64,000 nucleotides of DNA, taken from the IMG/VR virus record IMGVR_UViG_3300010885_054974, positions 1,827-65,826 of that record; one strand, 5' to 3'. Position 1 is the stretch's first letter; the number at the start of each line of letters is the position of its first letter. This stretch comes from a virus. Taxonomy: Duplodnaviria > Caudoviricetes. The position numbers were made by a program, and so were the translations under genes. Under the pieces are notes generated by a model, which was not told the origin of the DNA, searched no databases, and saw only the letters and a list, made by a program, of their open reading frames with translations. Shown here piece after piece: positions 1 to 24,275 of the stretch.

Positions 1-142
1 CAAATGTGCTGTAATCGTTGTCACCATAAATATACCAATAGTATCGAGTTCGGCTTAGACTAGCCGCATGTTCAAGAGAGTCAGCAGGCTGCTCAAACAC
101 AAACAGGTTAGGCTTTGCGCCTGAGTAAAACACATCAAACAT
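1..142 (-). CDS. Partial CDS running off the left edge; phage hypothetical, possibly glycosyltransferase-associated (MFDVFYSGAKPNLFVFEQPADSLEHAASLSRTRYYWYIYGDNDYSTF...)
   Basis: Translated by hand and absent from the ORF track; ATG at 142-140 with an open frame to the window edge and a protein-like composition. Confidence 0.7.
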   Translation of the reverse strand, partial: MFDVFYSGAKPNLFVFEQPADSLEHAASLSRTRYYWYIYGDNDYSTF

Positions 143-1349
143 GTACAATATCCACAGTCATTATTTTAATCTTTTTAGTTTTTTACAGACTATTATAGCA
201 CAACCTCGGCTAGAATATCTATATCCTTTTGGAGCCAGTTCAATCGAAAACATAGAAGTACTGGACACAGACGAAAGCCTTGATGTAGACCCCATTGTGT
301 TGTGCTATGATCAAGAGCCCTTGTACAAAGACTATAACGATTTCTTATTTGGTTGCGTGTATCGAAAGGCCAGAACTCTTCGAAGACCTGTAATATTAGT
401 TACCACAGAACGCAACAGTACAGCACTAAATTACTTTGTTGAAAAATACAATTTTATACCTTGCTACGGATTTTTCCACATATTTGCCGCACATGATTGG
501 TTCCGTGGTTACCAATTTGATTCAAAGATTGTGCCTGTGTCGCAAAGAACAATTAGAAAAAAGTACATCACATTTAACCGACTCACAGGCAATGCCAGAG
601 TTTACAGAAGTTTGTTTGTTGGTGAGTTGGCCAAACGAAATCTTATCAGTCAAGGGCATGTCAGCTACAGCAATATCTGTCCCGAACACGGACATTATCA
701 TGACTCCATCAACTATGCTGTCACTGAATACCAAGTGGATGCTGAATATGTGAACAACATCAAACACCATCTTGATCAATTGGCGCATCCACTACGAATT
801 GACCATGCGGGGAAAGATGCCATCCCCAATCACAGCATGATACTGAGCGCAGTAGATCAATGTATAGAAAGTTTTTTATACATAGTGACAGAAACTTGTT
901 TCTGGGACACCAAGTGTCATTTGACCGAAAAAGTATTCAAACCTATTATACTACAGCAACCATTTGTGTTGCTGGGCTGTGCCCATAACTTGGAGTATCT
1001 AAAAAGTTATGGGTTTCGAACATTTGATCAATGGTGGGATGAAAGTTATGATCACATAGAAGATCCGGTGATGCGAATACAAGCAGTGACTGAAGTGGTT
1101 GAATATATTTCAAGTCTAACCCTGGGTCAGCTGACTGCCATGCTACACGAAATGGCGCCGGTGTTGGAACACAATTTCAAATTGTTCAACAGTGCAGAAT
1201 TTTTAAACTCTGCATGGCAAGAACTAACTGATAATTTACGAGCGGCTGTTGCTAGTGCTCCTGTGATTCAACCTTATTCAATACCCAGAGCAGATCGTTA
1301 TCAGCTAGTTTCTTCCCCACCTGATTCTATTCCACACACGCTAGTGTAG
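141..1349 (+). CDS. Hypothetical protein with a glycosyltransferase-like C-terminal region
   Basis: 402-aa ORF; motif IVTET...LTEKVFKPI..QQPF..LG....L.YLKSYGF.TF..WWDESYD resembles GT10/GT-B-like phage proteins. Confidence 0.6.
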   Translation: MYNIHSHYFNLFSFLQTIIAQPRLEYLYPFGASSIENIEVLDTDESLDVDPIVLCYDQEPLYKDYNDFLFGCVYRKARTLRRPVILVTTERNSTALNYFVEKYNFIPCYGFFHIFAAHDWFRGYQFDSKIVPVSQRTIRKKYITFNRLTGNARVYRSLFVGELAKRNLISQGHVSYSNICPEHGHYHDSINYAVTEYQVDAEYVNNIKHHLDQLAHPLRIDHAGKDAIPNHSMILSAVDQCIESFLYIVTETCFWDTKCHLTEKVFKPIILQQPFVLLGCAHNLEYLKSYGFRTFDQWWDESYDHIEDPVMRIQAVTEVVEYISSLTLGQLTAMLHEMAPVLEHNFKLFNSAEFLNSAWQELTDNLRAAVASAPVIQPYSIPRADRYQLVSSPPDSIPHTLV

Positions 1350-1508
1350 CCAAAACAACAGGATCTTGGTTACAATTTCAGTTAGGGCGATACCGCTGGC
1401 TAATAATATTTGACCAGTAATAAGCCAACTGATCAAAAAAGTATCCACAGTGCCGGTTACTCGCCAAGTAACTGCTTTGACTAAACTGCGTACTGCGGTA
1501 TCACTCAA
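1305..1508 (-). pseudogene. DUF2061-like small membrane protein interrupted by an in-frame TAG
   Basis: Hand translation from TTG 1508: MSDTAVRSLVKAVTWRVTGTVDTFLISWLITGQILLASGIALTEIVTKILLFWLH*RVWNRIRWGRN*; the TAG at 1343-1341 sits where the HERxW motif needs Glu. Confidence 0.7.
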
Positions 1509-2343
1509 GTCCCATGCTCCGTCTTATCTTGGTCGCTGAGATATTGGTAATCGAGTCATCAAAACTCTCTTGTTCAATTCGATAGCCCACATCGCGACCG
1601 TAGGTGATGTTAACAATATTAGGAACCACTTGTATTTCATATTGACCTTGGTATACAGGATCTAGGTCCCTGCGTATATAATTTTTAACTTGTTCAATTG
1701 CGAACGGATTTGAGCCTTGCCAGCCTTGGCAGTCGCGTATCTGTATAACAACTTGGCCAGTTTTGGCAACAGCACGGTCGAACAATGCTCTATGCCCGGC
1801 GTGCCATGGCTGCCAACGACCCAACATTTGTACTGTTTCGGCCTGCCAATCAAATACAGGTCTACGGCGATTTTCAACTATATGCTCGCCCACAAACTCT
1901 GCCCACTTGTCTGCCGCTTGTTCTGTAATACGGAAGTCGTATACTTCGGGTGGTACAAATATTTTATTGGTATCTTCAAATCGACCTCGGTCAATTGTAT
2001 CAATCCAAATGGTCCAATCGGCTTTGAAGTTGTTACGCATTTCTACCAACGGTGCCACAAAGTCTACTATACAATAATCGGTGTTGGCTTCATCTGCCAA
2101 GTCTCGCATACGCTGGCTTTGTCTAATACGACCTTCTTGAGAGAAGTCCCAATCGTTGTAGTGTCTACGCACTTCATCGGCATTGAGCCAGGCCACCGTG
2201 ACTTGAGCATCCGCGATTGGTCTTAGCGAATTCTCATTGATGGGATTCATATGCTGTTCAAGATACCGTTTTAGTCTCTCTGCAAAATAAGTTTTGCCTG
2301 CACCGGGCAGTCCCATGATCAATATGCGTTGTGCTTGTTTCAT
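1501..2343 (-). CDS. Adenylylsulfate-kinase (CysC)-like P-loop kinase fused to an HxGH nucleotidyltransferase domain
   Basis: P-loop GLPGAGKT, NADEVR and DFS.EGR.RQ in the N-terminal part; GRWQPWHAGH and terminal ISATKIR in the C-terminal part. Confidence 0.8.
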   Translation of the reverse strand: MKQAQRILIMGLPGAGKTYFAERLKRYLEQHMNPINENSLRPIADAQVTVAWLNADEVRRHYNDWDFSQEGRIRQSQRMRDLADEANTDYCIVDFVAPLVEMRNNFKADWTIWIDTIDRGRFEDTNKIFVPPEVYDFRITEQAADKWAEFVGEHIVENRRRPVFDWQAETVQMLGRWQPWHAGHRALFDRAVAKTGQVVIQIRDCQGWQGSNPFAIEQVKNYIRRDLDPVYQGQYEIQVVPNIVNITYGRDVGYRIEQESFDDSITNISATKIRRSMGLE

Positions 2344-2344
2344 T

Positions 2345-2506
2345 TTATCCTCCTCTTCCAGTTTTCCGTCCAGTGGGTTTGTTCACAGTGACTTGATTTC
2401 GAAATTTAACCTGTTGCACTTGTTGTGCTTTGGCTTCTGGAATTTTTGTTTTGTTTGCCTGTGCGGCTTTGATTGCATCTAAAAAATTGTTTTTCTTTTC
2501 AGTCAT
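2345..2506 (-). CDS. Small basic hypothetical protein (53 aa, MTEKKNNFLDAIKAAQ...GRKTGRGG)
   Basis: Hand translation; ATGA overlap with the upstream gene; its GGAGG end serves as the Shine-Dalgarno for the next gene. Confidence 0.65.
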   Translation of the reverse strand: MTEKKNNFLDAIKAAQANKTKIPEAKAQQVQQVKFRNQVTVNKPTGRKTGRGG

Positions 2507-2679
2507 ATTGTACCCCATTTAATTCGAAGCCATATTCTTTCCATTGCATATTGTACTATGGCCAATACAACATGTATTGCTACCGCATCACTTAGACCTG
2601 TCCATACAGCAGTTATTAGCAAAGCAGTAATCCTATACGCAACTGTTCTTGCCAGGGTTCTTGCGTGTGTCTCTATCAT
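2503..2679 (-). CDS. DUF2061-like small membrane protein (58 aa)
   Basis: Hand translation MIETHARTLARTVAYRITALLITAVWTG...YAMERIWLRIKWGTI; ATGA overlaps at both ends. Confidence 0.7.
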   Translation of the reverse strand: MIETHARTLARTVAYRITALLITAVWTGLSDAVAIHVVLAIVQYAMERIWLRIKWGTI

Positions 2680-4163
2680 GATACTACTTGTACTCCATAA
2701 AGTTGTTCAAAACGGTCAGCATCGGCACGATCGTTGACCATTGGTTCTCCCCTGATGTTAAGACTTGTGTTTAACAACATGGGACAGTCTGTCATCACAT
2801 ACCATTTTTCCAGGAGTTCTCGTATTCCGCTTCCGTCTCGTGGCACAGTTTGTACACGACTAGTGCCATCATGATGAATGATAGCAGGGAATAGGTCAGG
2901 TACCCTGCAACGAGCGATTGTTTGCATATACCTACTACGGTCCCAGCCCCTAGGCATATCAAAGTAAGTATCAGCCAACTCCTCCAGAATAACTGGCGCA
3001 AAGGGTCTGAACTTTTGTCTGCGTTTAATTTCATTTACTTGATCCTTTATTTCTTTTCCTCGGGGGTCTGCAAGGAGGCTTCGGTTGCCCAACGCTCGCG
3101 GGCCGAACTCGGCACGACCGCTTGCCACACCCACAATACGATCACGGAGAAGAGCATCCAGGGCACCATTAACAGGATAAGGCCCAGGAATAAGGTGACC
3201 CAGAAAAGCATTGTTCCAATTAATGCGACGGCCCCAAACAAGGCCTGCGGCACCAAGGCTACTGCCGCTATCGCCAGGGCAAGGCATAATCCAAATGTTT
3301 TCAAAGTAGTTTCCTATTCTAGAATTGGCCGCGCAGTTGAGTGCCACGCCGCCCATATAAACCAAATTGTCACTCCACCCAAACTTCTTTGCACGAGTCA
3401 TAACATTTAGTATCAGTTGCTCTGCTAGTTCTTGTGCCCCGGCTGCAATATCCATATCGCTGGTGCCGGGCATAAAATCCGCATCGAGTCCTATGTGTAG
3501 ATTTTCTCGAAATCGTATGTCGTATTCGTGCGCTATCAACCGATCTTGCATTACAGCGGCATGACGCCTGTCACCGTAGGCTGCCATGCCCATCAAGATG
3601 TATTCTTCGTCTAGTGGGCGTAGGCCAACGCGGCCAGTCGCTCCAGAATAAAAGAGTCCGATGCTATGCGGGTAACTCTGTCTCCACAATTTCGTATAAT
3701 GCGCTTTACCATGTTTATCATATTCAGCCCCCCATATACTTATGGTATCCCATTCACCTATAGCGTCAATTACCACCACAGTAGCCCGATCAAAAGTACT
3801 GGTTTGAAACCCTGCCGCCGCATGACTTAGGTGATGATTATAATTCTTGTAGTATTTAACATCCTGCCAATTGGCATGTCCAATTTGATCGTGTATGTTT
3901 TTCTTCACACTGAGTCTGTTCCACTCGATGCCTTGACCGCTGTACCATTGACGCAACTGTTTCATCACTGGGCGTTCATAATATGCCACTGTGTCGATTG
4001 GGTTGTAATTTTCTAATTCTTCGATCAGTGGTGTGCAGAAGTTTTTGTCATTCTTGCGTTTACTATACCGCTCGCTATGGCCAGCAAATAGTATATCGCC
4101 ATGACGATCAATTACTGTTGCGGCTGCATCATGAAATCCAGCCGAGATGCCTAATATGTTCAT
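2676..4163 (-). CDS. Carbamoyltransferase, NodU/CmcH (TobZ-like) family
   Basis: HDAAA, HHLSHAA, DAIGE, GGVALN, EFGPRALGNRSLL, FRPFAP and LLNTSLNIRGEP motifs. Confidence 0.93.
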   Translation of the reverse strand: MNILGISAGFHDAAATVIDRHGDILFAGHSERYSKRKNDKNFCTPLIEELENYNPIDTVAYYERPVMKQLRQWYSGQGIEWNRLSVKKNIHDQIGHANWQDVKYYKNYNHHLSHAAAGFQTSTFDRATVVVIDAIGEWDTISIWGAEYDKHGKAHYTKLWRQSYPHSIGLFYSGATGRVGLRPLDEEYILMGMAAYGDRRHAAVMQDRLIAHEYDIRFRENLHIGLDADFMPGTSDMDIAAGAQELAEQLILNVMTRAKKFGWSDNLVYMGGVALNCAANSRIGNYFENIWIMPCPGDSGSSLGAAGLVWGRRINWNNAFLGHLIPGPYPVNGALDALLRDRIVGVASGRAEFGPRALGNRSLLADPRGKEIKDQVNEIKRRQKFRPFAPVILEELADTYFDMPRGWDRSRYMQTIARCRVPDLFPAIIHHDGTSRVQTVPRDGSGIRELLEKWYVMTDCPMLLNTSLNIRGEPMVNDRADADRFEQLYGVQVVS

Positions 4164-4755
4164 AAATTTGATTTGCTATTCTTTGATGGCCCAACTCTAG
4201 CGGATGTCCGCCGGGGCCTTTGGGGCAATTACCTTGAAACTCCAACATGCCATCTTTGGGCCAACCTACATAATTTTCAACCCGGTACCGGTCCCACAAG
4301 AAACTAAATTCATCCTGATACACCTCATGATGTCCTTGTAATCCAGCAACATTTACAAATAGGTAAGGTTGATTAATGCTCAACAGATACTGTTGCAATT
4401 CTAGTACCTGGGTGAACCAGGTGCGAAAACCAAACTTTTCATCGTAACTGTGTTTGTAATAGTCCTGCACCCAAGGAATACCACGACGCCCTGCGTGATT
4501 AATGCAAGTAGGAGTACCTTGGGTCCAAGTTTCAATTCTACTGGTGTCGCTCCACCCCACAATGACCAAGTCAAATTTTTGTTTGGCAGTTTGCTCTATT
4601 ACTGTGCGAATTATGTATTGATTACTGCCGCCGCCTTTGCCTAGATTTAATACTGGCTTGTCTAATAAACGAGACAACACATAGGGCCACGCCGACACGA
4701 TTCTATCGGGCAGTTCCTCACCGTAGGTAAAGCTGTCGCCTACTGTCAATATCAT
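4129..4755 (-). CDS. SGNH/GDSL hydrolase-like protein
   Basis: N-terminal GDSFTYG, NLGKGGGSN, C-terminal GHPLELGH. Confidence 0.7.
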   Translation of the reverse strand: MILTVGDSFTYGEELPDRIVSAWPYVLSRLLDKPVLNLGKGGGSNQYIIRTVIEQTAKQKFDLVIVGWSDTSRIETWTQGTPTCINHAGRRGIPWVQDYYKHSYDEKFGFRTWFTQVLELQQYLLSINQPYLFVNVAGLQGHHEVYQDEFSFLWDRYRVENYVGWPKDGMLEFQGNCPKGPGGHPLELGHQRIANQIYEHIRHLGWIS

Positions 4756-4853
4756 TTGTAGATAAATGGGTCGCGCTTACGCAACTCCCGAAGTTTCTTA
4801 CGATAGTTAATTTCCAACCTGATTCGGTTGATTAAGTTTGTTAACCATTTCAT
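4752..4853 (-). CDS. 33-aa basic peptide MKWLTNLINRIRLEINYRKKLRELRKRDPFIYK
   Basis: Hand translation; ATG at 4853; its TGA overlaps the next ATG (ATGA) and it fills the gap between the two SGNH genes. Confidence 0.7.
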   Translation of the reverse strand: MKWLTNLINRIRLEINYRKKLRELRKRDPFIYK

Positions 4854-5382
4854 TGAATTTTTCCTGCATTAATTGGGCGGCGTCTTGATGCGCTTGTTCT
4901 AAGGGATGACGGTCTGGGCCGCACAAGTATTTATTCTCCACAGCCCACTGGTAAAAACCTCTTGGAGTTTGCGTATTATATGATTGTTCTTTGGGTGCGG
5001 GTGGGAAAAAGAACCAGTTGCTATAATCCAATTGTCCTGTAACCACACAGTTATCGGCACAGGTAAACAAGTAGCGATAACCATGAAACTCCAAATACTT
5101 TTGCAAACTCATGATATCACGGTCGCTGTCGATTTGATTATCCCTTGTGGGCCATGTCCAGCAAACCACAACCACCACATCATTACGCATCCAGTTCAAG
5201 TAGTCACGCACACGCAGACCAATTTCACGATTGCCTATGCCCGGGTAAGCGGCACACACATATCGGGTGGCCAACAGGGCCGGAAAGGTACTATGGCTGT
5301 AACCGTCCAGGCCGCCGTGCGGGCTATCGGCAAGCTCACTGCCCCAAACAAAACTGTCACCGCCCGCGACTACTGTAGTCAT
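4807..5382 (-). CDS. SGNH/GDSL hydrolase-like protein
   Basis: GDSFVWG, PGIGN and HPLEQAH motifs. Confidence 0.65.
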   Translation of the reverse strand: MTTVVAGGDSFVWGSELADSPHGGLDGYSHSTFPALLATRYVCAAYPGIGNREIGLRVRDYLNWMRNDVVVVVCWTWPTRDNQIDSDRDIMSLQKYLEFHGYRYLFTCADNCVVTGQLDYSNWFFFPPAPKEQSYNTQTPRGFYQWAVENKYLCGPDRHPLEQAHQDAAQLMQEKFNEMVNKLNQPNQVGN

Positions 5383-6448
5383 ATCCTGGTTTTAACTTTG
5401 CTATTTGTTGTTGTTGATAATCTGCGTCGGTCCACGCATAATCATATACCGCTTGAATAGGACCTGAGCGCAGTTGGCCTGCGGTTATACTATAAATGTC
5501 AAGATACCGACTCAGTACGGGCCAAATTTCTTTAAAATCTGTAGTACCAAAACTTTTAGCCAATTCAACTTGTCCCACAGGATGGTATCCATAATTGTAT
5601 TCTATATCTTCCAAGCTGAAGCGATTGCGTACCAGCCACTCGCGGAAGCCGGACATTTCAGTTGTGTGCCACGGGTGTGGTCCATTGTACACAACATCTT
5701 GTGCCCACTCAATGTCAAATTCGCCCGAATAGTATCTCAAGTGAGTGATGGCGTCACACACAGTTTTGTCTATGTCTGCGCCCTGTTCATCACGATACAC
5801 TTCGTACAAGGTCTTGCCTATCTGCGTCCAATGCAAGTACGCTTCGCCAAATCGCCTATCATATCTAGTTTCATCAAAGGTTGTTTTATATGCTTCGGGA
5901 AAATCTATGCGTTCAGCATTTAAGAATGTGGTAATTTGACTAGGCCGTACCCACTGGGGGTCCTGTGCCTGTTTGCGTTGACTCAGCATGAGACTTTCGG
6001 CTTCGTGACACAGATTGTTTAGTTGACGGATAGAAAACTTGGTGTCGTAGTCGGCTTCTTTGTACCAATCACTCAATCCCCATACAGTACCTTGCAAGTG
6101 TTCAAAGTGATTGTGCAGTTGGTTCATTATGTCTTGATTGGGTTCAAGTCCGGTGCGTAGTGTGTCTATGGCAAAGTTTTCTTCAATGTGATATCGCTTG
6201 TTGAAGAAAGTGTTGATTTGATTCTTGGCCCAGGTGAGTTCTTGGCATATGTAATCCAAGTTGCGAGGACTGTCGGGAAAACCCAAAAAGCAAAAGTTCT
6301 TTTCAAGATATTGATTCTTCAGCAATATTTCTTGTAATGCTCTGTGCCAACGATAGCCCATGGGTGTATCGTACACATCAATGGTATAGGCCAGAGTGTC
6401 GCTTTTGTTCAGCGGGTTTCTTAATACTACTTCAACTTTCATGGCCAT
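5357..6448 (-). CDS. Hypothetical protein (363 aa)
   Basis: Long ORF overlapping both neighbours in the operon. Confidence 0.75.
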   Translation of the reverse strand: MAMKVEVVLRNPLNKSDTLAYTIDVYDTPMGYRWHRALQEILLKNQYLEKNFCFLGFPDSPRNLDYICQELTWAKNQINTFFNKRYHIEENFAIDTLRTGLEPNQDIMNQLHNHFEHLQGTVWGLSDWYKEADYDTKFSIRQLNNLCHEAESLMLSQRKQAQDPQWVRPSQITTFLNAERIDFPEAYKTTFDETRYDRRFGEAYLHWTQIGKTLYEVYRDEQGADIDKTVCDAITHLRYYSGEFDIEWAQDVVYNGPHPWHTTEMSGFREWLVRNRFSLEDIEYNYGYHPVGQVELAKSFGTTDFKEIWPVLSRYLDIYSITAGQLRSGPIQAVYDYAWTDADYQQQQIAKLKPGYDYSSRGR

Positions 6449-6654
6449 TTAAGTGCCCAGAACATGGCTTTTGCAGGATCTGGAATTTCCCAATAATGGT
6501 TATGCCCACTGTATACAACTGCACCAAAATCATTTTTTATTGTCACAGGTTCGCTTACATGAATAAAATCAGTACCAATCTCTCCAATATTGTCTTTGGT
6601 CCATTGTTGCCATTCAGTTTGTTTATCATAAGGAATTGTGTGTTCTAATTTCAT
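6439..6654 (-). CDS. Small hypothetical protein
   Basis: ATG at 6654 overlaps the stop of the upstream radical SAM gene (ATGA). Confidence 0.6.
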   Translation of the reverse strand: MKLEHTIPYDKQTEWQQWTKDNIGEIGTDFIHVSEPVTIKNDFGAVVYSGHNHYWEIPDPAKAMFWALKWP

Positions 6655-7946
6655 ATCGACATCCACCATTTGAGTACATCAGGACGGGCACTGAGTATGT
6701 CAGTCATTGTCACACTCTGTGTTCTGATCTGCTCTAATTTTAACACACGAGCCTTGCCACGAGCAACTGCTTCGGCATATTCTTTTGGCCATTGTTCTGC
6801 AAAAGTGGGTCTAGTTTTTAGCTGGACAAGTATATCCCGCAAGGCGCCGCCAGAATGTTGCATCTGGTTGGTAATCTCATCTACCCAAGGATGTAGTATT
6901 TCCCTGGGTAGTGCAAGGGGTGACATAACTATGTCCGGACTAAAACTAAAAATTACTTTGGCAAGGACTTCGACTCCGAATCGCTGTGCAAGTTGTTCAA
7001 TGCGTGTAATTTCGAACATTCCGGGCAAAGTGAGCGTGAAGTCAATTCTGACTTGACGATTGTTACGTCTGATCTCAACTGCCTTACTGAAATTTTCAAG
7101 CCACCGAGGATAGCTAAGACCAGTTCTAATGTACTCGCCAATCTGTTCCGTGCCATCAAGGCTTGCACATATCTGCCAATCGCGAATCCTACTGAGAATA
7201 TCCCTATACAGATTGATACCTTTGTAATCAACTCTAGATAAGTTGGTGTTATAACGAGCGTAAACATTGTGACCATCTCCTAATTCTATTATACGGGTCA
7301 TGTATCTCCAATGTTGCTCGTACATCAGGGGCTCGCCACCAACCCAATATACTTCCTCAACACGGTGTTCCTCGACAGCTTTTTCAAATTCCCATTCTAT
7401 CTGTCGTTGCTGAAAACCTTCTATGTCTTTCTTAATCTCGGGTCGCATCCAGTTGTTCTTTGGATTAGCCCAATCGATCATGCCGTGTTGCCGTTGCTCA
7501 GTTTCCCAAGCACTGGACAGCATGTCTCCGCACATACGGCATTTAAAGTTGCACAGGTTGCTAAATCTGTAATCCCACGATACCGGAAGCATGGTTGTAC
7601 TGCCGTCCTCGGCGGTATTTTCCATGGCTTCGTTGTACTTATGTTCAAACAGCTGATTGAAATAGCTACGGTAAACAGAAGTATTCAACAGTCTATCATT
7701 GCATACTTCGCACTCAGGCAGTGTTTCCCCGGCCATCATGCGTTTTCGCACACTCCGCATATGGTCACTATTCCAATGTTCATCTAGCGTGATAGGGATA
7801 TAACGCCCAGTGCCAGCCTCGGTATCAATGTACTGTTGAAAGTTCTGTGCAGGCTCGCGACTTGCACAGCACATTCTGCGTTCAGTTTGCGGGCTTAGAT
7901 ATGTGTGCGTCCAGGGCGCCATGCATAAGGTATCAGGTTTTGTCAT
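6651..7946 (-). CDS. Radical SAM protein with N-terminal twitch/SPASM-like Cys domain
   Basis: CMAPWTH..MCC and CEVC, then CNFKCRMC, GGEP and YNTN; start taken at ATG 7946. Confidence 0.88.
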   Translation of the reverse strand: MTKPDTLCMAPWTHTYLSPQTERRMCCASREPAQNFQQYIDTEAGTGRYIPITLDEHWNSDHMRSVRKRMMAGETLPECEVCNDRLLNTSVYRSYFNQLFEHKYNEAMENTAEDGSTTMLPVSWDYRFSNLCNFKCRMCGDMLSSAWETEQRQHGMIDWANPKNNWMRPEIKKDIEGFQQRQIEWEFEKAVEEHRVEEVYWVGGEPLMYEQHWRYMTRIIELGDGHNVYARYNTNLSRVDYKGINLYRDILSRIRDWQICASLDGTEQIGEYIRTGLSYPRWLENFSKAVEIRRNNRQVRIDFTLTLPGMFEITRIEQLAQRFGVEVLAKVIFSFSPDIVMSPLALPREILHPWVDEITNQMQHSGGALRDILVQLKTRPTFAEQWPKEYAEAVARGKARVLKLEQIRTQSVTMTDILSARPDVLKWWMSI

Positions 7947-10458
7947 AGCCCATTGCACGAGCAATATCAGTGTGTGTACGAGCAAAGTCTTCGCCTCGAT
8001 AACGATCCGTGCGTTGCATTTCTTTCAAAAACTGTGCGTTATCCCGTGTTTCGCCGTTTTTAATAAACTGTATAATACGATCTATTTCCTTGCGATGGCG
8101 TGGAATAAAGTCACCGTCGGTTAGTCGGTCAATTACCAATGCTTTTGCTTCTTCAGTCATTGAACCAATGTTCATGTGCTTGGGGTCATGCATCATGTTG
8201 AAATAATCGTAGTCAAAGTTTTGTAGGATTACCCACTTACATAGGTCTTCCAAGTACAACACATTCTGCACATTGATGGTCATGCATACCTGTGTGCGTA
8301 ATCGGGGCCACGCCTGTTTCATAGCATGGAAGCGTTGAATGTTGGCTTCTACTTCGGTCCATCGAGCACCCGACCGTTCAAATTCAAAACGCTCACCCAC
8401 ATTATCAATACTGAATGCAATTTCCACCTTGCGGAACTGTTTCCATGTATCAATGAATTCTTCTGGGAAATGTGTACCATTGGTATTGTAATGAATTTCG
8501 ATGTTGTCAGCATAACCGTTGTCTGCGGCAAACTTCAACAGGTCAAAGTGTTCTTGAATCATAAACGGTTCGCCGCCGGTGAATTCAAAGTATTTGACAT
8601 GTGGCAGTATGGTTTTCAAGTCCTCCCAAAAGCGCGGACTATTTTCGTTGCGTGGCCAGTTGCCTTGCTTGAGCCATGTGTAGGCAATATGTTTCTTAGG
8701 GTCGCCGCCCCAGTCTTTGACATATTCCATTTCTTCCGGCACCCATTTGCTACTTGACCACGAGCCACAGATGCGGCATTTCAAATTGCAGATGTTGCCC
8801 AGCTTCAGGTCCAAGAACCATAACTGATTGGGTTTATCATTCTCCCAATCTACTTCTGCATAGCGTTCTTTGAATCGGGTTAATGTGTGTAGTCGCTTGC
8901 TGGTACGACCTGCATCTTCTTCTTCCCAACAACGAGTACAAGTGGCGGGCTTTTTACCCTCGCGGAAACTTTTGCGTAGATCCTGCATATATTTGCTGTT
9001 GTAAATTTCCGTCACAGTATGCCGGTTCATGTCATACTTTTCGCCCGACTCATCCACAATCTCATCTGTGGCCAAACAGCAGGGGCGGGCCGATCCAACA
9101 GGACTGGTTTCAATGCTGACCCAAGGCAACATGCACATGGTCTGTGGCAACTTGTAGTTTTTCATTTCCACCAACTCAGGGAAAGTTTCAAAGAAGTTTT
9201 CTTCGCGCACCTTGTCAATGAGTTCGTTAACTTTGAAAAAGTCCGGCAAGTAGGCTGTGCTGTCATTGTGTTCCATGAAGTTCAACACACCTTTGTAGCC
9301 ACTTGTGGCACGAGTCAAGGTATCTAGGGGTTCCAACCATTCCAAATGTTCTTCAATGCGGTCACGAGCACGACGCTTCAGATTGGGTGGTAGTGCATCT
9401 ACACGATATCGCAAGGGGTGTTGCAACATGTTGATGTTCCAATCCATTGGACGCAATAAGCCCAAGTCAACCCATTCGCGATGGAAGTCCGGAATGTGTA
9501 TCACATTCATCAGACTCACTGTTGAGCTCACATAGAAGTCTACATTGGGACATACCTTCAACATGCGCTCACGGTTCTCTACTGTTTGACGCCAGTCCTG
9601 TCCCTTACGCATGTATTCACCACGATGGTAACTGGCATCCAAGCTGGCGCCCACACTTACACAGTCAAACAGTTTCCAAAGTTCCATTACATCTTGGTCT
9701 TTGAATTTCATTTCCGAGAAGTTAGTATTGTATATCAGGCGCACATGAAACATTTCACGGTCAACCAGTTCGCGTAGCACACGATAGTGTTCTTCCATGA
9801 TTAGAGGTTCGCCACCGGCCCAGTAGATTTGTTCAAGATGCGGAATATGCTCTTGCATTTGATTCCACATGTCTTCTTTGTTCTTGCCCGCAAACATGAT
9901 CTGTGGATGTTGTGGATTCCAGCCAGCGGCTTTTTCATCACGATACCAACTTGAACTAAACAGGCTACCGCAACTACGGCAACTGAAGTTACAGATGTTT
10001 GAAAAGCGCACATCATAGTAGCGCAGTTTGAAATCATTAAGACTACCGTCGGCATTGGTTTCATCCACCAGATTGATCAGGTGCCCAAAGTTTTTGTTTG
10101 AGCTGTTACGCATACTGAACAACTCACTGCGTTCTTGCTCCACGCACTTGGTACATTCTTTGCAGGGTTTGTCCTGCATCATGTTCAAACGCATTTGTTT
10201 CAATGGATCTTGATTCCAAATCTCTTTCATGGTGTGCGTTTTAAGATTGCCCACTGAATGATCAGGGTCACCCAAACAGCAGGGATATGCACGACCATCA
10301 GGAAAGGCATGCATATGGATCCACGGAATCATACAGAAGTTATCGGTCTTGATCAAACGGTCCCATTGGTCAGGACGCATTTCTTCTTGTTTCATGTACA
10401 CCGGCATACGGGCACCGTAGTTGTAATTTTCGTAATAGTTGTCTAGTTTGTCAGTCAT
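7933..10458 (-). CDS. Tandem double radical SAM protein (two twitch plus radical SAM units)
   Basis: Unit 1: CMIPW..PCC, CTKC, CNFSCRSC, GGEP. Unit 2: CMLPW..PCC, CTRC, CNLKCRIC, GGEP. Confidence 0.9.
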   Translation of the reverse strand: MTDKLDNYYENYNYGARMPVYMKQEEMRPDQWDRLIKTDNFCMIPWIHMHAFPDGRAYPCCLGDPDHSVGNLKTHTMKEIWNQDPLKQMRLNMMQDKPCKECTKCVEQERSELFSMRNSSNKNFGHLINLVDETNADGSLNDFKLRYYDVRFSNICNFSCRSCGSLFSSSWYRDEKAAGWNPQHPQIMFAGKNKEDMWNQMQEHIPHLEQIYWAGGEPLIMEEHYRVLRELVDREMFHVRLIYNTNFSEMKFKDQDVMELWKLFDCVSVGASLDASYHRGEYMRKGQDWRQTVENRERMLKVCPNVDFYVSSTVSLMNVIHIPDFHREWVDLGLLRPMDWNINMLQHPLRYRVDALPPNLKRRARDRIEEHLEWLEPLDTLTRATSGYKGVLNFMEHNDSTAYLPDFFKVNELIDKVREENFFETFPELVEMKNYKLPQTMCMLPWVSIETSPVGSARPCCLATDEIVDESGEKYDMNRHTVTEIYNSKYMQDLRKSFREGKKPATCTRCWEEEDAGRTSKRLHTLTRFKERYAEVDWENDKPNQLWFLDLKLGNICNLKCRICGSWSSSKWVPEEMEYVKDWGGDPKKHIAYTWLKQGNWPRNENSPRFWEDLKTILPHVKYFEFTGGEPFMIQEHFDLLKFAADNGYADNIEIHYNTNGTHFPEEFIDTWKQFRKVEIAFSIDNVGERFEFERSGARWTEVEANIQRFHAMKQAWPRLRTQVCMTINVQNVLYLEDLCKWVILQNFDYDYFNMMHDPKHMNIGSMTEEAKALVIDRLTDGDFIPRHRKEIDRIIQFIKNGETRDNAQFLKEMQRTDRYRGEDFARTHTDIARAMGYDKT

Positions 10459-11816
10459 AGTGTGTTGTACCAATCTGCTAGTGCAGGGAATGTTTCTGCA
10501 AAGTTTTTGTTTCGACGCTGGTCGTACTGTGTGTAGAAGTTTTTAAAGTCACGCTGTAGTGTGATCTGTTCCATTGCTTCTGTATGCGGTTTCAATACCA
10601 CATCAATGTAGTCAAGTAATCTGTCAAGTTGGTTCTTTTCAAATTCGTGCATCAAGTCAAATCTATGCCAGTCGTTGGCAAATCGATATAATTTGCCAGC
10701 ATATTGCTGTCTAATGTCGTTTGGGAAAATTGTAAGTGATTGAAAACTTGGAAAGCGTAATATATTTAGCGAGAAGTTGATGGAGTCCCGACCGTATTGC
10801 AATTTCCAGTTCATAACCATGTCCAAGAAGCTGTCTAAACTATCTAAACACAATGCGTTAACGGTACACATAACATGCAGGCCACGGAACCGGCCCGAAT
10901 CCAGCAAGCGTTCCACATTGTTGGCCCAATCGTCAAATACCAGTCCATCGCGAATATATTCGGCCTGTAGGCCCACGGCCTCGTTACTGGTATACAAGTC
11001 AACTTCAACACCGTCAACGGCCGCTAGTAAACGGTCAATGTCAACCGCGGTGCCCAAGTTGCTGTTGATGGCAAGTCGGGTAGTACTCTTGCCCTTGTTG
11101 GTTTTAAACCAATCAATTAACTTCCAAGTCTCTGCCGACATTAGTGGCTCGCCTCCAGTGATGCGTAGTTCCTTTAAGGTTCTGTGGAGGTCCGACTCCC
11201 ACCAGGCGTGGAATGCTTCCACATAAGGATTAGTCTCACCGAACTTATACAGTTGACTACTATCGTGAGCGTGAGTAAAATGGTTCCTACCGTCACTAAC
11301 CAAGTTGGTGTAGGGTCCATGTTGCTTAATGTCTTTAACCCAAGTGCTACTAAAAGCGGGGTTGCAGTAAGAACAAGCAAACTGGCAAGTGCGATCAAAT
11401 GCAATTTCCAATGTTTGAAGATCGAAATCTTCACTGGCAGGTGTTCTGTGTGCATGGGCCAAATCCTCATCTGAATAAATTACTGTTTTGTATACACGAT
11501 CACTTATAGCGGCGGGAAAAGGATCTGTATGCATGTCTTCAATCTTCCAACAATATTCGCACCCTGCAGGGCGTTCACCCTTTTGCATTTGTTCACGCTC
11601 CATTTTTTTCTTTTGCGTGTTGTGAATTGCCTTGGGATTGATTCGAATTGCATCTAGGTCAATGGCGTGTGGCAGAGGATGATGACAACTTGTGGTCTGT
11701 CCCGATCCTAACCATATGGTGGCATTGTACCATTTGGCTCCACAGAAGCTGGCTGACTTGATGTCAATTACCCTGTGTTTGTATTCAAAATCTGTTTCGT
11801 TAGCTATTTTGGGCAT
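10455..11816 (-). CDS. Radical SAM protein with N-terminal twitch-like domain
   Basis: CGAKW..SCHH, CEYCW, CQFACSYC and TGGEPLM. Confidence 0.88.
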   Translation of the reverse strand: MPKIANETDFEYKHRVIDIKSASFCGAKWYNATIWLGSGQTTSCHHPLPHAIDLDAIRINPKAIHNTQKKKMEREQMQKGERPAGCEYCWKIEDMHTDPFPAAISDRVYKTVIYSDEDLAHAHRTPASEDFDLQTLEIAFDRTCQFACSYCNPAFSSTWVKDIKQHGPYTNLVSDGRNHFTHAHDSSQLYKFGETNPYVEAFHAWWESDLHRTLKELRITGGEPLMSAETWKLIDWFKTNKGKSTTRLAINSNLGTAVDIDRLLAAVDGVEVDLYTSNEAVGLQAEYIRDGLVFDDWANNVERLLDSGRFRGLHVMCTVNALCLDSLDSFLDMVMNWKLQYGRDSINFSLNILRFPSFQSLTIFPNDIRQQYAGKLYRFANDWHRFDLMHEFEKNQLDRLLDYIDVVLKPHTEAMEQITLQRDFKNFYTQYDQRRNKNFAETFPALADWYNTL

Positions 11817-13185
11817 GATATCTACATTCTTTCCAAAATTCCGTCATCTGCGGAAATGTTTCTTCAAAATTGGTATGTCGACGCTTGTCGTGTTCATTGA
11901 AGAAACGATAAAAGTCTGCTCGTTGCATTTTAACATAATCGGCGTCCAGACTGCGACCTTCCTCCATCCAGGCTATGTCACGACGCATACGCTGTACTTC
12001 GTAGTCTTTGAATCCTTGGAATGGCTGTTCCGACCGTTCTAGATTCAACTCCATCCAATCGGCCACACGCTCCAATTGGCGCACATACACAGCCGGTAGT
12101 ATTTGTAAACTCTGCCATCGAGGTGTGCGTAGCAATGGTGTGTCGAACCACACACGCTGATATGTTGTGCTATGGTTCTTACGCAACCGTAGTATCCAGT
12201 CCAATTGTTGCTGTAGGCCCAACACACTGAGATTATTCATAGTAATAATAAATGTCAAGCTGTTACGATATGGAATTTCTCTCAAGAACATGTTGACATT
12301 TTCAACCACACGATTGTAGTTTAATCCGTGTCTGATGTATTCGGCATGAGCATAGTTGCCCGAGTCTAGACTAACATACTGCATGAAGTGTTCAATTTGT
12401 GTGTTACACAACTGCTTGACATAGCCAAGATATTTGTCCATCAAGGCATCTTCTACGCTGAAGTTGCTGGTAACATCTAAGTGCAGTTCTGGATTGGGCA
12501 TGGCCAACACATAGTCGAATACTTTGTATGTGTTACGATCCATCAAGGGCTCGCCACCGGTCATTCTAAAGTGTTTTAGTTTGGGGTACAGCTCGGGCCA
12601 CCATTCCCAAAATGCATCTACATAAGGGTTGGGCTGGGAATGTGGTATAGGACGGCGGCTACCAACAAAGTGAGCAGGATCATTATGAACAACACTAGTA
12701 GGATATCCCCCAAACTTATCAACTTCTGCTTGCCACGAACTACTAAACTGGGGGCTACAATAACTACACTTAAGATTACAAGCATGATTGAAATTGACTT
12801 CCACATAACTAGGAACAACATCTTCTTCTCCTGAGGAATTTCGTATAGCATCAAAATGTTCTACAGCCCACTTCTCGCCTGATCGATAGTGTCTATCACT
12901 GAGTTGATCGTGCTTTTCTATGTTCCAGCAGTAACTACACTCAGCGGGTTTTTCGTTACGGATCATGATCTTCCGCTGTTCTTTTTTGTAAGCGGTGTTG
13001 TGTAGTGCGCCGGGATTTGCTTTTAATGGCTCAACATCTATGTGATGCAGAGGCGGGTGGTAACAACTGTTGTTGAGACCTGTGGGCAAGTGTAGGCTAA
13101 CCTGTTGCCACTTGGCAAGGCAAAGTGCAGGGCCTAATTGTTCTCGCATCTGCTCGGCCGCAGACATGAAGTCACTTTTACTCAC
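11800..13185 (-). CDS. Radical SAM protein with N-terminal twitch-like domain
   Basis: CLAKW..SCYH, CSYCW, CNLKCSYC and TGGEPLM. Confidence 0.88.
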   Translation of the reverse strand: MSKSDFMSAAEQMREQLGPALCLAKWQQVSLHLPTGLNNSCYHPPLHHIDVEPLKANPGALHNTAYKKEQRKIMIRNEKPAECSYCWNIEKHDQLSDRHYRSGEKWAVEHFDAIRNSSGEEDVVPSYVEVNFNHACNLKCSYCSPQFSSSWQAEVDKFGGYPTSVVHNDPAHFVGSRRPIPHSQPNPYVDAFWEWWPELYPKLKHFRMTGGEPLMDRNTYKVFDYVLAMPNPELHLDVTSNFSVEDALMDKYLGYVKQLCNTQIEHFMQYVSLDSGNYAHAEYIRHGLNYNRVVENVNMFLREIPYRNSLTFIITMNNLSVLGLQQQLDWILRLRKNHSTTYQRVWFDTPLLRTPRWQSLQILPAVYVRQLERVADWMELNLERSEQPFQGFKDYEVQRMRRDIAWMEEGRSLDADYVKMQRADFYRFFNEHDKRRHTNFEETFPQMTEFWKECRYHAQNS

Positions 13186-14077
13186 GAACCATTGGTCCTT
13201 TATTTTTAAACTGACTCATGTAATGGTGTTTGAAGAAACGGCTTTCCACTGGATCCATGTCCACAATAGGCAAGCCCAATCGTCGACATAAGTGGTCTCC
13301 GTAACTGTGTGCGTCCTCAACTACATCAGTATACTTTACTTCTGTGTCCCAGATCTCCTGTAGTGCATCAAAACTCTGCACTTCGGTATAGTCCCAGGCA
13401 GTCAACATGGTTTTGTATGTGCCGTGTCGTGCGCCCATGATGGCCCAAGCACCATTTTCGTTGTCTGCACCTACACTCTGCCAAATACACAGGTTGTCGT
13501 AATTACGATTGTTCACACGGCTTTCAAACTCGGACAAACTAGGACGAACTCCACGATCCAAGCTCATCTTGACGCCTTCTCTGAATCCGGCTCGCCAGGC
13601 TTGAAATGGAGTGGCATCGGGATAGGTAGTTGAGTAGCAGTCATGCATGGCCCAGTAGCGGGGATAGAAACAAAATTCTACATCATTTTCTGCTTGGCCA
13701 TCTGTGGCTTCATGTGTTCGCATGGCGTAAACAAATTCTTTTGTCCACGAACTCATGCCGCCATTGCCGTACATCAGGCCATTGATGCTGTTACGGGCTC
13801 GCCAACGAAATACACAATCACGATTGGTGTTAGTTAGCTCTAGCTGAAGATTGAAAAAACTGCTGTCAGGAATATTATCGCCGTCGATAAGGATAAACCT
13901 ATCAGTATCGCTAATATCTGCACACGCTTTATGTGCGGCATCGCTTCCCTTAACACCGTCCACACGCTTTGCCCACGGTACAAGATTTTGAATTTGTACC
14001 CAGAATTCTTCTCGTCGAGGTTCATCATAAGTTAGGTATATGCAATCTAAGTCTGCTACATCAACTAATTCGGTCAT
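13178..14077 (-). CDS. Glycosyltransferase (GT-A)-like protein
   Basis: YDEP, RVDGVKGSDAAHK and a DxD motif (LIDGDN). Confidence 0.6.
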   Translation of the reverse strand: MTELVDVADLDCIYLTYDEPRREEFWVQIQNLVPWAKRVDGVKGSDAAHKACADISDTDRFILIDGDNIPDSSFFNLQLELTNTNRDCVFRWRARNSINGLMYGNGGMSSWTKEFVYAMRTHEATDGQAENDVEFCFYPRYWAMHDCYSTTYPDATPFQAWRAGFREGVKMSLDRGVRPSLSEFESRVNNRNYDNLCIWQSVGADNENGAWAIMGARHGTYKTMLTAWDYTEVQSFDALQEIWDTEVKYTDVVEDAHSYGDHLCRRLGLPIVDMDPVESRFFKHHYMSQFKNKGPMVRE

Positions 14078-14390
14078 AGTGTTCTATTTCTTCGTAATGA
14101 TCATTTTCCAGCACAAGACTGGCGTGTCCTCGTACTACAGCCACACCAGAATTACTTCTCTTTAATTGTACATGAAAATGGTCGCTGGTGTCAACTACAA
14201 TCTTGCCATTTGTCACACGCACATTGTAGTTTGGTCGTTCGTACTGCTCTCGAGTGATAACAATGTAATTGCCCACTGGGTAATCGTGGCTTGCCATGGC
14301 AACGGGCCGGCCTTGAGCATCGTAGTACAAACGATATTCTATTTGTTGTTTAGGAAATGGTAGGTATAACTCGTCGCTCATAGTATTCAA
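14061..14390 (-). CDS. Hypothetical protein
   Basis: 109-aa ORF overlapping both neighbours. Confidence 0.6.
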   Translation of the reverse strand: MNTMSDELYLPFPKQQIEYRLYYDAQGRPVAMASHDYPVGNYIVITREQYERPNYNVRVTNGKIVVDTSDHFHVQLKRSNSGVAVVRGHASLVLENDHYEEIEHYDRIS

Positions 14391-15198
14391 TTAGTTCGTC
14401 TGTGGCAAAACTCTTTTCATGATAGTGTACCGGTGCTGTTTGATTGATGTTGTTGATGCGTATCATGTCACCATCCTGTTCAGTAACGCAGTATTCTGTC
14501 CAAGGTTGATCGTCACTCCAGCCCTGTATGCCCGATTTCATATGTACAAAGTTTACAAAATCCAAACTAGGATTGTAACAGGGTGCATCCATGATCTTGG
14601 CCACTAGGGCATACACCACATCAGTTGTTGGGTAGGGGTCATCACAATTCTTCAGCTCTGCTCTTACATCTGCCCAATTTTCAAATATCTGTCGGGCCAG
14701 TTCAAAAAACTGTCGACTGGTTTCACTGTAGCGCCAATACATTAATCCATTGTACACATCTGGCAACCGGTTGGCATCAAATATTTGTCTGTACTTTCTT
14801 ACCCATGACAGCCGTTGTTGATAATCTCTACAGCCATGACTTAGACAAACATCTTGTAATCTAAATGCCGTCCACCAATGGTCAATTGAGCGAGTAAACA
14901 GCAAATCACTTTCTAACTTGACAGTTTCTTTATAGGGACTTAGCCACCAGGTGTGCCATTCATTGGCATAAGGGCCTTGCCCTTCAACTCGGTTGGTGGG
15001 AATTATATGCTCAAATACCGCTCGATGCTGATCTGTGACTTGCTCTAGTGTTGCCGAATCAACTATGACACTACAGTTCTTGATGCGTTGCGTTGCTTGT
15101 ATATTTAGCGCCTGTAGGTAAGCCAGCCGCAGGTAGTCTGTTGCTTCTGTGTTGATGGCTACTGTCAAGAAACCTTGGGCGGCGTAGTGCTTAGGCAT
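14350..15198 (-). CDS. Glycosyltransferase-like protein (GT-A/GT8-like)
   Basis: SPYKETVKLESDLLF (DxD-like), YNGLMYW and FVHMK; paralogous to the next gene. Confidence 0.6.
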   Translation of the reverse strand: MPKHYAAQGFLTVAINTEATDYLRLAYLQALNIQATQRIKNCSVIVDSATLEQVTDQHRAVFEHIIPTNRVEGQGPYANEWHTWWLSPYKETVKLESDLLFTRSIDHWWTAFRLQDVCLSHGCRDYQQRLSWVRKYRQIFDANRLPDVYNGLMYWRYSETSRQFFELARQIFENWADVRAELKNCDDPYPTTDVVYALVAKIMDAPCYNPSLDFVNFVHMKSGIQGWSDDQPWTEYCVTEQDGDMIRINNINQTAPVHYHEKSFATDELIEYYERRVIPTIS

Positions 15199-15962
15199 TG
15201 ATCTACAAATTCCTTTAGATTGGGTGTGGTCAAATATCGTTTGCTCATCACATGCAGACTCTGCCGGGGCAACACATAGGCCTGATCTGAGCGCACCACA
15301 ACACGATTGTCTCGTAATTCCATGCTGGTGATTGCACCAGCAAATGTTGTAATCGTATGTGGCGCAAATGATTTTCGATTTAAACTGTAGCCACTAAGAA
15401 TATAGTGTGCAATGGCAAAGGCATAATCATTTCGGTAGTTGCCTTCGCGAACATTGTACAGCAATCTGTAATAGTCGTAATTGCGTTTGATTCTGGCCAC
15501 CAGTTCAAAAAACATTTTTGTTTTTTCACTGCGTCTAAACAACACAGCAGTGGCCCAAACAAAAGGCAAACTATGCGGGCCCATCACACTGGGCTCGTAT
15601 ACTCCATCAATGGTGTGGTTTCGGTCAAAAAGCAAGTAATCGAACGGGCACTCAAATAGCTGGCCAATACTATCATCAAGTATAAGATAATCGGCGTCAA
15701 GGATGATGGTTTCATCGTAGGGGCTTGATTCATATGCTTCGTGTCTTCCAAAATTTTTCCATTCTACAAATTGACCTGTGTCTGAACTAAATCGTCGATT
15801 GGTGCCGGTATCCGTTGCACCAACAATGGTTGTGGGTAATCCCAAAAAGTGTTGGATCAGTCTAGCGTTTTGTTCAGCAATAGCAACATAATCTGTTTCA
15901 CGAGTATTGGTTGCAAATATTACCGCGCCTCTAGATTTTGCGGATTCGTTTAAGTTCGGCAT
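15165..15962 (-). CDS. Glycosyltransferase-like protein (GT-A/GT8-like)
   Basis: SPYDETIILDADY (DxD), WATAVLF, RNDYAF and HVMSK. Confidence 0.62.
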   Translation of the reverse strand: MPNLNESAKSRGAVIFATNTRETDYVAIAEQNARLIQHFLGLPTTIVGATDTGTNRRFSSDTGQFVEWKNFGRHEAYESSPYDETIILDADYLILDDSIGQLFECPFDYLLFDRNHTIDGVYEPSVMGPHSLPFVWATAVLFRRSEKTKMFFELVARIKRNYDYYRLLYNVREGNYRNDYAFAIAHYILSGYSLNRKSFAPHTITTFAGAITSMELRDNRVVVRSDQAYVLPRQSLHVMSKRYLTTPNLKEFVDQCLSTTPPKVS

Positions 15963-16245
15963 GTTGTTGGTGCCATTCATTCATCACTTCTTGGTAATGT
16001 TGTTGTGCTGTGACTAAGAATACCTGTCGATCTATTTCAATGGGGTTATGGAACACATCTTCCAGGTACAACACATCTGTGGGCCATGTTTTTACAAACG
16101 CCAGTAGTTCGGGGGTGACTCGAAACATACCACCATTATGTGTGATATGCAACTTGGTCAAGATGCGCTCGCGAAGTATTTCGGCATTTAGATGATAGTC
16201 TGTTGCTTGCCGAATTTGTTCTACAATGGGTTTAAGGTCGCTCAT
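15931..16245 (-). CDS. Hypothetical protein, first gene of the modification operon
   Basis: ATG at 16245 lies just downstream of a sigma70-like promoter. Confidence 0.7.
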   Translation of the reverse strand: MSDLKPIVEQIRQATDYHLNAEILRERILTKLHITHNGGMFRVTPELLAFVKTWPTDVLYLEDVFHNPIEIDRQVFLVTAQQHYQEVMNEWHQQHAELKRIRKI

Positions 16246-16251
16246 GGATAC

Positions 16252-16280
16252 AGTATAACACAAATTGCACCCAAGGTAAA
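16252..16280 (-). promoter_or_regulatory. Sigma70-like promoter TTTACC-17 nt-TATACT with extended -10 TG
   Basis: Minus strand reads tttacc ttgggtgcaatttgtgt tatact gtatcc ATG. Confidence 0.65.
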
Positions 16281-18864: not shown

Positions 18865-18870
18865 TATTTA
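18865..18870 (-). promoter_or_regulatory. Late promoter motif TAAATA
   Basis: tattta on the + strand upstream of the ATG at 18838, followed by a GGAG Shine-Dalgarno. Confidence 0.6.
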
Positions 18871-18879
18871 TCATGTTTT

Positions 18880-24269: not shown

Positions 24270-24275
24270 TATTTA
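24270..24275 (-). promoter_or_regulatory. Late promoter motif TAAATA
   Basis: 4 nt upstream of the ATG at 24265. Confidence 0.6.

Follow-up and report, generated by a model that had tools for sequence, protein, structure and literature searches.

A radical SAM-rich gene block beside the tail-fibre genes of an uncultured giant T4-like phage: a candidate glycan-tailoring pathway

What would a giant bacteriophage build with five radical S-adenosylmethionine (rSAM) cores in a single row of genes? The question is raised by a contig of an uncultured freshwater virus, IMGVR_UViG_3300010885_054974, of which 64 kb out of 65.8 kb was analysed (hereafter the window; positions count from its first letter). 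The row in question, here called the block, lies on the minus strand from 16263 to 1341 and consists of 18 open reading frames (ORFs), about 15 kb including a promoter that starts at 16280. Neighbouring ORFs overlap or lie 1 nt apart at 16 of the 17 junctions, the remaining one being a gap of 51 nt, and three of the 18 ORFs are shorter than 60 aa. A preliminary description of this DNA had reported about 19 tightly overlapping minus-strand genes directly downstream of the tail-fibre genes, which agrees with the 18 ORFs counted here and with the fibre genes that adjoin the upstream end of the block. The remaining genes in the window indicate a T4-like giant myovirus of the Rak2/XacN1 type, as they encode a gp6-like baseplate wedge protein (phrog_10646, E 6e-292), gp25-like and gp5-like proteins, a portal, a prohead protease, a late sigma factor, an SbcCD-like nuclease and several fibre proteins.

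The gene content of the block, its intact motifs, its co-conservation and its promoter class were observed directly. The block is most likely a soluble, cytoplasmic pathway that builds and tailors a glycan in the infected cell; we hold this with slightly more than even confidence, and its substrates and product we infer.

The radical SAM array

The five cores are spread over four genes on the minus strand. Types A (11800..13185), B (10455..11816) and D (6651..7985) are single members of the NCBIfam family NF033640 (N_Twi_rSAM), and 7933..10473 is a fused double protein that joins types C1 and C2, which are separate genes in many relatives. The four genes score 294.6, 732 (in two stretches), 282.9 and 301 bits against NF033640, and all five cores lie above its curated cut-off of 170 bits. 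The residues C47, C66, C107, C110, C161, C165, C168 and G220-P223 are invariant across the five, each core has CxxxCxxC, GGEP and four N-terminal cysteines intact, and Pfam SPASM matches N-terminal to Radical_SAM in these genes. The earlier count of four rSAM genes with five cores is therefore borne out: the cores are members of NF033640 with intact cluster and SAM motifs. All five have the N-terminal four-cysteine auxiliary-cluster region ahead of CxxxCxxC in common with NF033640, but that family is a catalogue entry only, whereas here five types occur in a fixed order with two of them fused. Searches of the literature and the PDB found no assay, substrate or structure for any NF033640 member. 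The solved structures nearest to a profile of the five cores are SkfB (2e-6), viperin (2e-5), BlsE (3e-4) and MoaA (2e-3), and the twitch region of the profile aligns weakly with BtrN. With rSAM A as query the ESM Atlas returned only unnamed viral rSAM clusters, and a scan of the genome contig collection with core C1 as a single protein gave no relative. Away from the block, between the SbcD-like and SbcC-like genes, the window holds another radical-SAM-like gene of 280 aa (53375..54217, plus strand), which matches phrog_21308 at 4.6e-19 and Pfam Radical_SAM at just 0.012.

Encoded in the same row is a conserved protein of 363 aa (5357..6448, minus strand) whose family comprises 620 clusters at 50% identity. 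Its confident model (pLDDT 88.2) weakly resembles a cyclophilin-like barrel with an inserted helical bundle. Neither Foldseek with the model nor a PDB profile search with the family gave a match, and the ESM Atlas gave no usable one; the middling cyclophilin-like match in the VIA comparison (Z 7-8) was not taken as the function of the protein. In one relative of 754 aa (P0270) a domain like the 363-aa protein (residues 23-318) is fused to an N-twitch rSAM (337-746). In seven others (712-775 aa) a 400-aa N-terminal domain of no known kind comes before it.

Conservation, promoter and timing

Relatives of rSAM A were found at 369 places in IMG/VR, the best 80 of which were kept as a locus set, selected by rSAM A and with flanks limited to 10 kb. 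The core genes are present at 50% coverage or more in 59-80 of the 80 loci. Where the locus was fully flanked (n = 47), types A, B, C1 and C2 were found in 47 of 47 and type D in 46, always in the same order, and extra, diverged rSAMs in 18; the fixed A-B-C1-C2-D order is what a co-conserved operon, as first proposed, leads one to expect. As the loci come from related phages and were selected by rSAM A, they show co-inheritance and purifying selection, not independent assembly. The carbamoyltransferase gene and the kinase fusion gene described below were found in 24 and 3 of the 80 loci, respectively, low counts that partly stem from truncation of the loci by the flank limit; both genes follow the block in two relatives (G001 and L102). 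Accessory genes in or beside the block of relatives encode a DegT aminotransferase, an FkbM methyltransferase, a nucleoside diphosphate (NDP)-sugar dehydratase/epimerase, an AMP-binding enzyme, more rSAMs (one of B12 type) and an Fe-S assembly protein, and a gene for a D-Ala-D-Ala carboxypeptidase is present at one related locus. The only cultured phage with relatives of the block is Ralstonia phage RsoM2USA, which has a reduced core (the small first protein, two GT8-like proteins, two GT-A-like proteins and one rSAM) behind a fibre-like gene. These genes are all annotated as hypothetical protein in the GenBank record, and the core ORFs are not mentioned in the available text of the RsoM2USA paper. 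The GT-A homologue of RsoM2USA has no close relatives in IMG/VR, and megablast of the block against cultured phages gave no match.

The block is preceded by a sigma70-like promoter, TTTACC-17-TATACT with a TG (16252..16280, minus strand), with 6 nt between it and the conserved ATG at 16245. The match is only 9/12 in this window but the promoter is conserved among relatives: a match of at least 10/12 was found in 52 of 77 of their upstream regions vs. 5 of 400 random 95-nt stretches, so that the single sigma70-like promoter of the preliminary description can be retained. Of the 67 regions that match at 9/12 or better, 24, this window among them, place the -10 box exactly 6 nt ahead of the ATG, and this spacing suggests that the first gene is leaderless or near-leaderless. 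Within the block, the best sigma70-like match (TTGACA-18-TACAAT, 11/12) is at 14165-14194 on the minus strand, inside gene 14061..14390 and upstream of the GT-A gene, and may be an internal promoter or chance.

Directly upstream of the block, and separated from it by a hairpin, is the gene for a fibre-tip-like protein of 329 aa (16316..17305, minus strand), which is outside the operon and has a counterpart upstream in 70 of the 80 loci. The relatives likewise have a hairpin and then a sigma70-like promoter between the fibre-tip gene and the first block gene. In many of them (L007, L013, L016, L028 and others) terminator and promoter overlap about 60 nt upstream of the first block gene, the hairpin at the end of the fibre-tip gene holding the block's -10 box in its loop. 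No exact match to the T4 late consensus TATAAATA was found in the window. Its variant ATAAATA has seven matches, five of them 5-31 nt upstream of structural genes, and sites of the form (C/G)ATAAATA are at 18865-18871, 24270-24276, 42339-42345 and 50473-50479 on the minus strand and at 57966-57972 on the plus strand; judged by its position, (C/G)ATAAATA looks like the late promoter of this phage lineage. Of 65 loci, 62 have ATAAATA in the 95 nt ahead of the fibre gene; ahead of the block it is found in none of 76, and among random stretches in 4 of 800. Because of the terminator, the sigma70-like promoter and the lack of ATAAATA ahead of it, the block is predicted to be a separate unit that is not co-transcribed with the late fibre operon. 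Since its promoter is of the host type, it is probably read by the sigma70 polymerase early or in the middle of infection.

Putative sugar-transferring and decorating enzymes

Three glycosyltransferase (GT)-like proteins had been claimed for the block, and three are found: one with a GT-A model and two paralogues, one of which has a weak link to glycogenin. The first (13178..14077, minus strand) is GT-A/GT2-like by its AlphaFold2 model (pLDDT 82.6), which shows a Rossmann-like fold, and D65-G66-D67, the DxD motif that follows the fourth strand, is invariant in its family. Foldseek places BcsA (4e-4), hyaluronan synthase (8e-4) and SunS at the top of its matches, the model also resembles ThuS (SunS and ThuS are peptide S-glycosyltransferases), and a PBCV-1 capsid glycosyltransferase is among the fold matches. 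The protein itself has no Pfam match at E<=1, Glycos_transf_2 (PF00535) included, and a PDB profile search with its family gave none. Its relatives form at least 8000 clusters at 90% identity, with a Pfam domain in none of the 120 listed. The longer relatives are tandem duplications of the same domain, and as the diverged second copy in three of them (P0326, P0380 and P0381) matches Pfam GT2 models at E 2e-6 to 2e-5, the balance for the block protein leans towards a glycosyltransferase. The other two (14350..15198 and 15165..15980, minus strand) are paralogous (hhalign 98.6%, E 7.6e-16) and GT8-like. The family profile of the former matches the GT8 enzyme glycogenin at E 7.8e-4 over 106 positions of the N-terminal Rossmann half only, and an ExD motif is invariant in it. 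The latter, found in 76 of 80 loci, has an invariant D95-x-D97; a PDB profile search with its family gave no match.

The carbamoyltransferase of the preliminary description is well founded. Gene 2676..4163 (minus strand) encodes an O-carbamoyltransferase of the NodU/CmcH/TobZ/NovN family with both Carbam_trans_N and Carbam_trans_C above cut-off (124.9 and 158.3 bits; 1.7e-46 and 6.3e-36), and its closest solved relatives are NovN (3e-51), GdmN and TobZ (2e-30). Against the NodU equivalog NF041651 it scores 136.3 bits, under the cut-off of 1000 bits. NovN and TobZ act on sugar hydroxyls. The two proposed SGNH proteins fare differently. The protein at 4129..4755 (minus strand) is SGNH/DUF6071 esterase- or acyltransferase-like, with a DUF6071 score of 33.7 bits (cut-off 27; 3.8e-8) and Lipase_GDSL_2 under cut-off, whereas 4807..5382 (minus strand), which matches no family model, is SGNH-like only in the GDS and DxHP..H blocks that it shares with 4129..4755; a PDB profile search with its family gave no match.

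The earlier assignment of an adenosine phosphosulfate (APS)-kinase fusion also holds. The product of 1501..2343 (minus strand) joins an APS-kinase-like P-loop kinase (Pfam APS_kinase, 28.1 bits, cut-off 21.1) to a nucleotidyltransferase domain of about 110 aa with an HxGH motif, which scores as NMNAT-like and not as ATP sulfurylase. The APS-kinase equivalogs give 18 and 25.3 bits and their cut-offs (TIGR00455, 138.7; NF004041, 127) are not reached. Bifunctional phosphoadenosine phosphosulfate (PAPS) synthases and NadR-type fusions are alike in combining a P-loop APS-kinase-like domain with an HxGH nucleotidyltransferase, and relatives of the phage fusion adjoin sulfotransferases; it differs from them in domain order and size, in its NMNAT-like second domain and in missing the equivalog cut-offs. 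The fusion has at least 598 relatives in IMG/VR, the nearest 80 of which were inspected. A homologue of a true sulfotransferase (the one at L107:8813-9751; Sulfotransfer_3 2.8e-15) is present in 33 of these 80 loci, and by analogy with these neighbours the fusion may make PAPS. The claim of a sulfated product is less secure for the phage studied here: tblastn with six sulfotransferase or sulfotransferase-like queries from relatives found no homologue on this contig, and the Pfam scan of the window ORFs covered gave no sulfotransferase match. Since the tested sulfotransferases are without a homologue on the contig, sulfation is unproven for this phage. The fusion was also rejected as a fixed member of the block, as block genes lie upstream in only 1-2 of the 49-61 loci with enough upstream DNA. 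On another phage contig (L092:7498-10014) four tandem paralogues of 206-216 aa lie upstream of the kinase fusion gene, one weakly sulfotransferase-like and another like the SGNH-like proteins of this window.

The remaining ORFs of the block, all on the minus strand, are small. The first gene (15931..16263; about 104 aa from the ATG at 16245) encodes a conserved protein of no known family that is found in 76 of 80 loci and whose family gave no match in a PDB profile search. Another small conserved protein (14061..14390) is found in 68 of 80 loci with a median identity of 38%. A 76-aa ORF (6439..6669), without a homologue in any of the 80 related loci, is possibly not a gene, and 2345..2518 is a basic ORF of 57 aa without an assignment. 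Two DUF2061-like proteins had been described. The last ORF of the row (1341..1508) is a DUF2061 small membrane protein (PF09834, 62 bits, cut-off 23.1; E 7e-17), but the hydrophobic 58-aa ORF at 2503..2679 is DUF2061-like by eye only, and neither Pfam nor BLASTP gives a match. A convergent 402-aa ORF without a family match (141..1349, plus strand), with CATAAATA at 25-32, shares 9 nt with the end of the block. It has partial homologues within the block of other loci (41 of 80, at 50% coverage or more in only 3), and may be a further, late-expressed member. Among the fibre genes on the other side are a subtilase (20977..22353, minus strand; Peptidase_S8, 3.7e-14) and, after it, a fibre gene with a Peptidase_G2 intramolecular-chaperone domain (17318..18838). 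A single ORF of 4523 aa (25308..38879, minus strand), situated between the gene for the baseplate wedge and those for the fibres, presumably encodes a giant fibre or baseplate-attached protein.

What the block may make

The steps of the proposed pathway are given here in their presumed order. First, the GT-like proteins, two GT8-like and one GT-A/GT2-like, would transfer sugar to an acceptor. The five N-twitch rSAMs, being non-redundant, would contribute one distinct radical step each on a sugar or sugar nucleotide, with oxidation, epimerisation, deoxygenation and C-C or C-methyl chemistry as candidate steps, and the 363-aa protein would be their partner. The SGNH-like proteins would add or remove acyl groups, the NovN/TobZ-like enzyme would O-carbamoylate a sugar hydroxyl, and the kinase fusion would supply an activated nucleotide donor, possibly PAPS. 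That the product is of glycan type is supported by the DegT, FkbM and dehydratase/epimerase genes of relatives and by the closeness of the carbamoyltransferase to NovN and TobZ. A cytoplasmic site is supported by the lack of hydrophobic segments in all block enzymes, such segments being present only in the two small ORFs 2503..2679 and 1341..1508, and by family scans of the block, which turned up neither flippases nor polymerases nor any family of lipid-linked initiating transferases. The preliminary description had spoken of a complex carbamoylated, sulfated, radical-tailored glycan. Of this the conserved glycan-type operon stands, and O-carbamoylation and acyl chemistry are plausible, but the sulfate is unproven.

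Several observations weigh against a glycan pathway. No block enzyme has an assayed close relative, and the block in this window holds no gene for nucleotide-sugar synthesis. The nearest solved relatives of the rSAMs are no less peptide maturases than they are nucleotide or sugar enzymes. The GT8 assignment is weak, and the VIA alignment of 13178..14077 (Z 8-9.7) fits cytidylyltransferases as well as glycosyltransferases.

The position of the block makes one of the phage's virion proteins, for example a fibre, the leading, if tentative, candidate for the acceptor. The earlier proposal of Ser/Thr/Asn-rich fibres is in keeping with the adjacency of the fibre genes, but there are at least three arguments on the other side. 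First, the block and the fibre genes have promoters of different classes, and a terminator insulates the block. Second, relatives do not conserve the Pro/Thr/Ser linker of the 329-aa fibre-tip protein, and the linker was for this reason rejected as a mark of glycosylation sites. Third, the adjacency may simply be inherited, as all loci come from related phages. The full picture, in which five N-twitch rSAMs each carry out a different new reaction on a phage-built chain that is carbamoylated, sulfated too in some relatives, and attached to the fibres of the virion, is speculative, and we consider it rather doubtful.

If it is instead attached to no macromolecule, the product could be a diffusible small molecule, a sugar metabolite like an aminoglycoside, aminocoumarin or nucleoside antibiotic, made early to act on the host or competing phages. 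We regard this as unlikely. NovN, GdmN and TobZ, the nearest solved carbamoyltransferases, belong to small-molecule pathways, the rSAM profile aligns weakly with BtrN in its twitch region and with the nucleoside-sugar enzyme BlsE in its core, DegT, dehydratase and AMP-binding genes accompany the block in relatives, and an early-type promoter and soluble enzymes throughout would suit such a product. In the available text of PMC12801897, DegT-like, amidinotransferase and rSAM genes of a cyanophage are annotated as antibiotic synthesis genes, without tests. The likeness to antibiotic sugar-tailoring (NovN, TobZ, GdmN, BtrN, BlsE) is nevertheless limited, as the rSAM matches are remote and the twitch is N-terminal here and not C-terminal. 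Family scans of the window showed no exporter, resistance gene or scaffold-forming enzyme (e.g., 2-deoxy-scyllo-inosose synthase), three GT-like proteins and tandem GT relatives fit a glycan chain better, and the constant place behind the fibre genes would go unexplained.

The rSAMs might also modify a protein or peptide (a fibre or a small conserved protein) in the manner of maturases of ribosomally synthesised peptides that are modified post-translationally (RiPPs), the GTs then glycosylating it. Among solved structures SkfB matches the five-core profile best, the GT-A model resembles SunS and ThuS, the block encodes two small conserved proteins, and SPASM/twitch rSAMs are named as typical peptide maturases in the available text of a review (PMC11002830). 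The peptide-maturase matches are weak, however (none better than E 2e-6), no small protein has more than one cysteine or a visible leader/core layout, family scans of the block gave no RiPP recognition element or protease family, and the accessory genes are of sugar type. Peptide modification is thus improbable.

Still less probable is that the block remodels a precursor of a host envelope glycan (lipopolysaccharide (LPS), capsule or a peptidoglycan-linked sugar) for superinfection block or surface change. GT8 includes LPS glycosyltransferases, surface glycans, Nod factors among them, are typically decorated with carbamoyl, acyl and possibly sulfate groups, the promoter is of early type, and a D-Ala-D-Ala carboxypeptidase occurs at one related locus. 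Direct assembly of an envelope polysaccharide is disfavoured because the enzymes are soluble, with no membrane-associated enzyme found, and because the flippase and lipid-carrier steps are missing from the families detected. Moreover, the relatives examined carry a T4-like lytic gene set, serotype conversion is unusual in T4-like lytic phages, and five dedicated rSAMs would be hard to account for. The Nod-factor toolkit combines the carbamoyltransferase NodU, sulfation by NodPQ/NodH and acetylation by NodL. The block resembles it in having a GT2-like enzyme, a NodU-like carbamoyltransferase, acyl chemistry and an APS-kinase-like enzyme, but differs in the missed NodU cut-off (136 vs. 1000 bits), the lack of a sulfotransferase on the contig, the phage setting and the added rSAMs.

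Virion, host surface and DNA had been named as targets on an equal footing, and DNA appears the least likely of them, hypermodification with a tailored, carbamoylated sugar being very improbable because the sole thymidylate-synthase-family gene scores as ThyA in all five related large contigs (three at least 90% complete; ThyA is beside DHFR in G001, the sole genome whose neighbourhood was inspected) and TGT/DpdA is found in none of the five with working controls. Tet_JBP was likewise found in none of the five, but its control was equally silent and the result is uninformative. An early-type promoter and soluble enzymes would also suit DNA modification, and glycosylation of phage DNA and carbamoylation of 5-hydroxymethylcytosine are known. 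On this, Pyle et al. (2024) is cited in the available text of PMC12619734. The acceptors that remain are a virion protein, which is favoured by position, or a small molecule, with thin support for either.

How does a glycan pathway of this kind compare with what viruses are known to encode? Chloroviruses and mimiviruses have capsid or fibril glycans. Virion glycans of mycobacteriophages have been reported (Freeman et al., 2023, as cited in the available text of PMC12619734). Such virus-encoded systems are alike in combining soluble virus GTs with sugar-tailoring enzymes, which in this phage lie beside structural genes; they differ in that this phage is known from its genes alone and that the promoter class of the block is unlike that of its fibre genes. 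To our knowledge, the systems of mycobacteriophages, chloroviruses and mimiviruses include no rSAM array or carbamoyltransferase. Full-text searches, which did not cover the supplementary files of papers, found no paper on the block, and in agreement with the preliminary description they found no characterised phage pathway of such composition. Nishimura et al. (2017; PMC5332604, available text) give a count of 12 rSAM genes for a single marine T4-like genome, without tests. Virus-encoded glycosylation is thus known, but an array of five rSAMs with GTs and a carbamoyltransferase is not described in the literature found.

The families of the GT-A protein and the 363-aa protein are nearly all viral and without names, and because they are so large a single experiment could give annotations to genes by the thousand and possibly bring new radical sugar chemistry to light. 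The reduced core of RsoM2USA indicates a minimum gene set for such work, and the promoter class points to early infection as the time to look. Such work could also show with what abundant giant lake phages decorate their particles, or what they produce in the host cell. If the block does tailor a glycan for the virion fibres, the coat of the phage would be chemically unique, shaping host recognition or shielding the fibres, and giant phages of fresh and sea water, a large lineage common worldwide, would possess their own multi-step radical glycochemistry.

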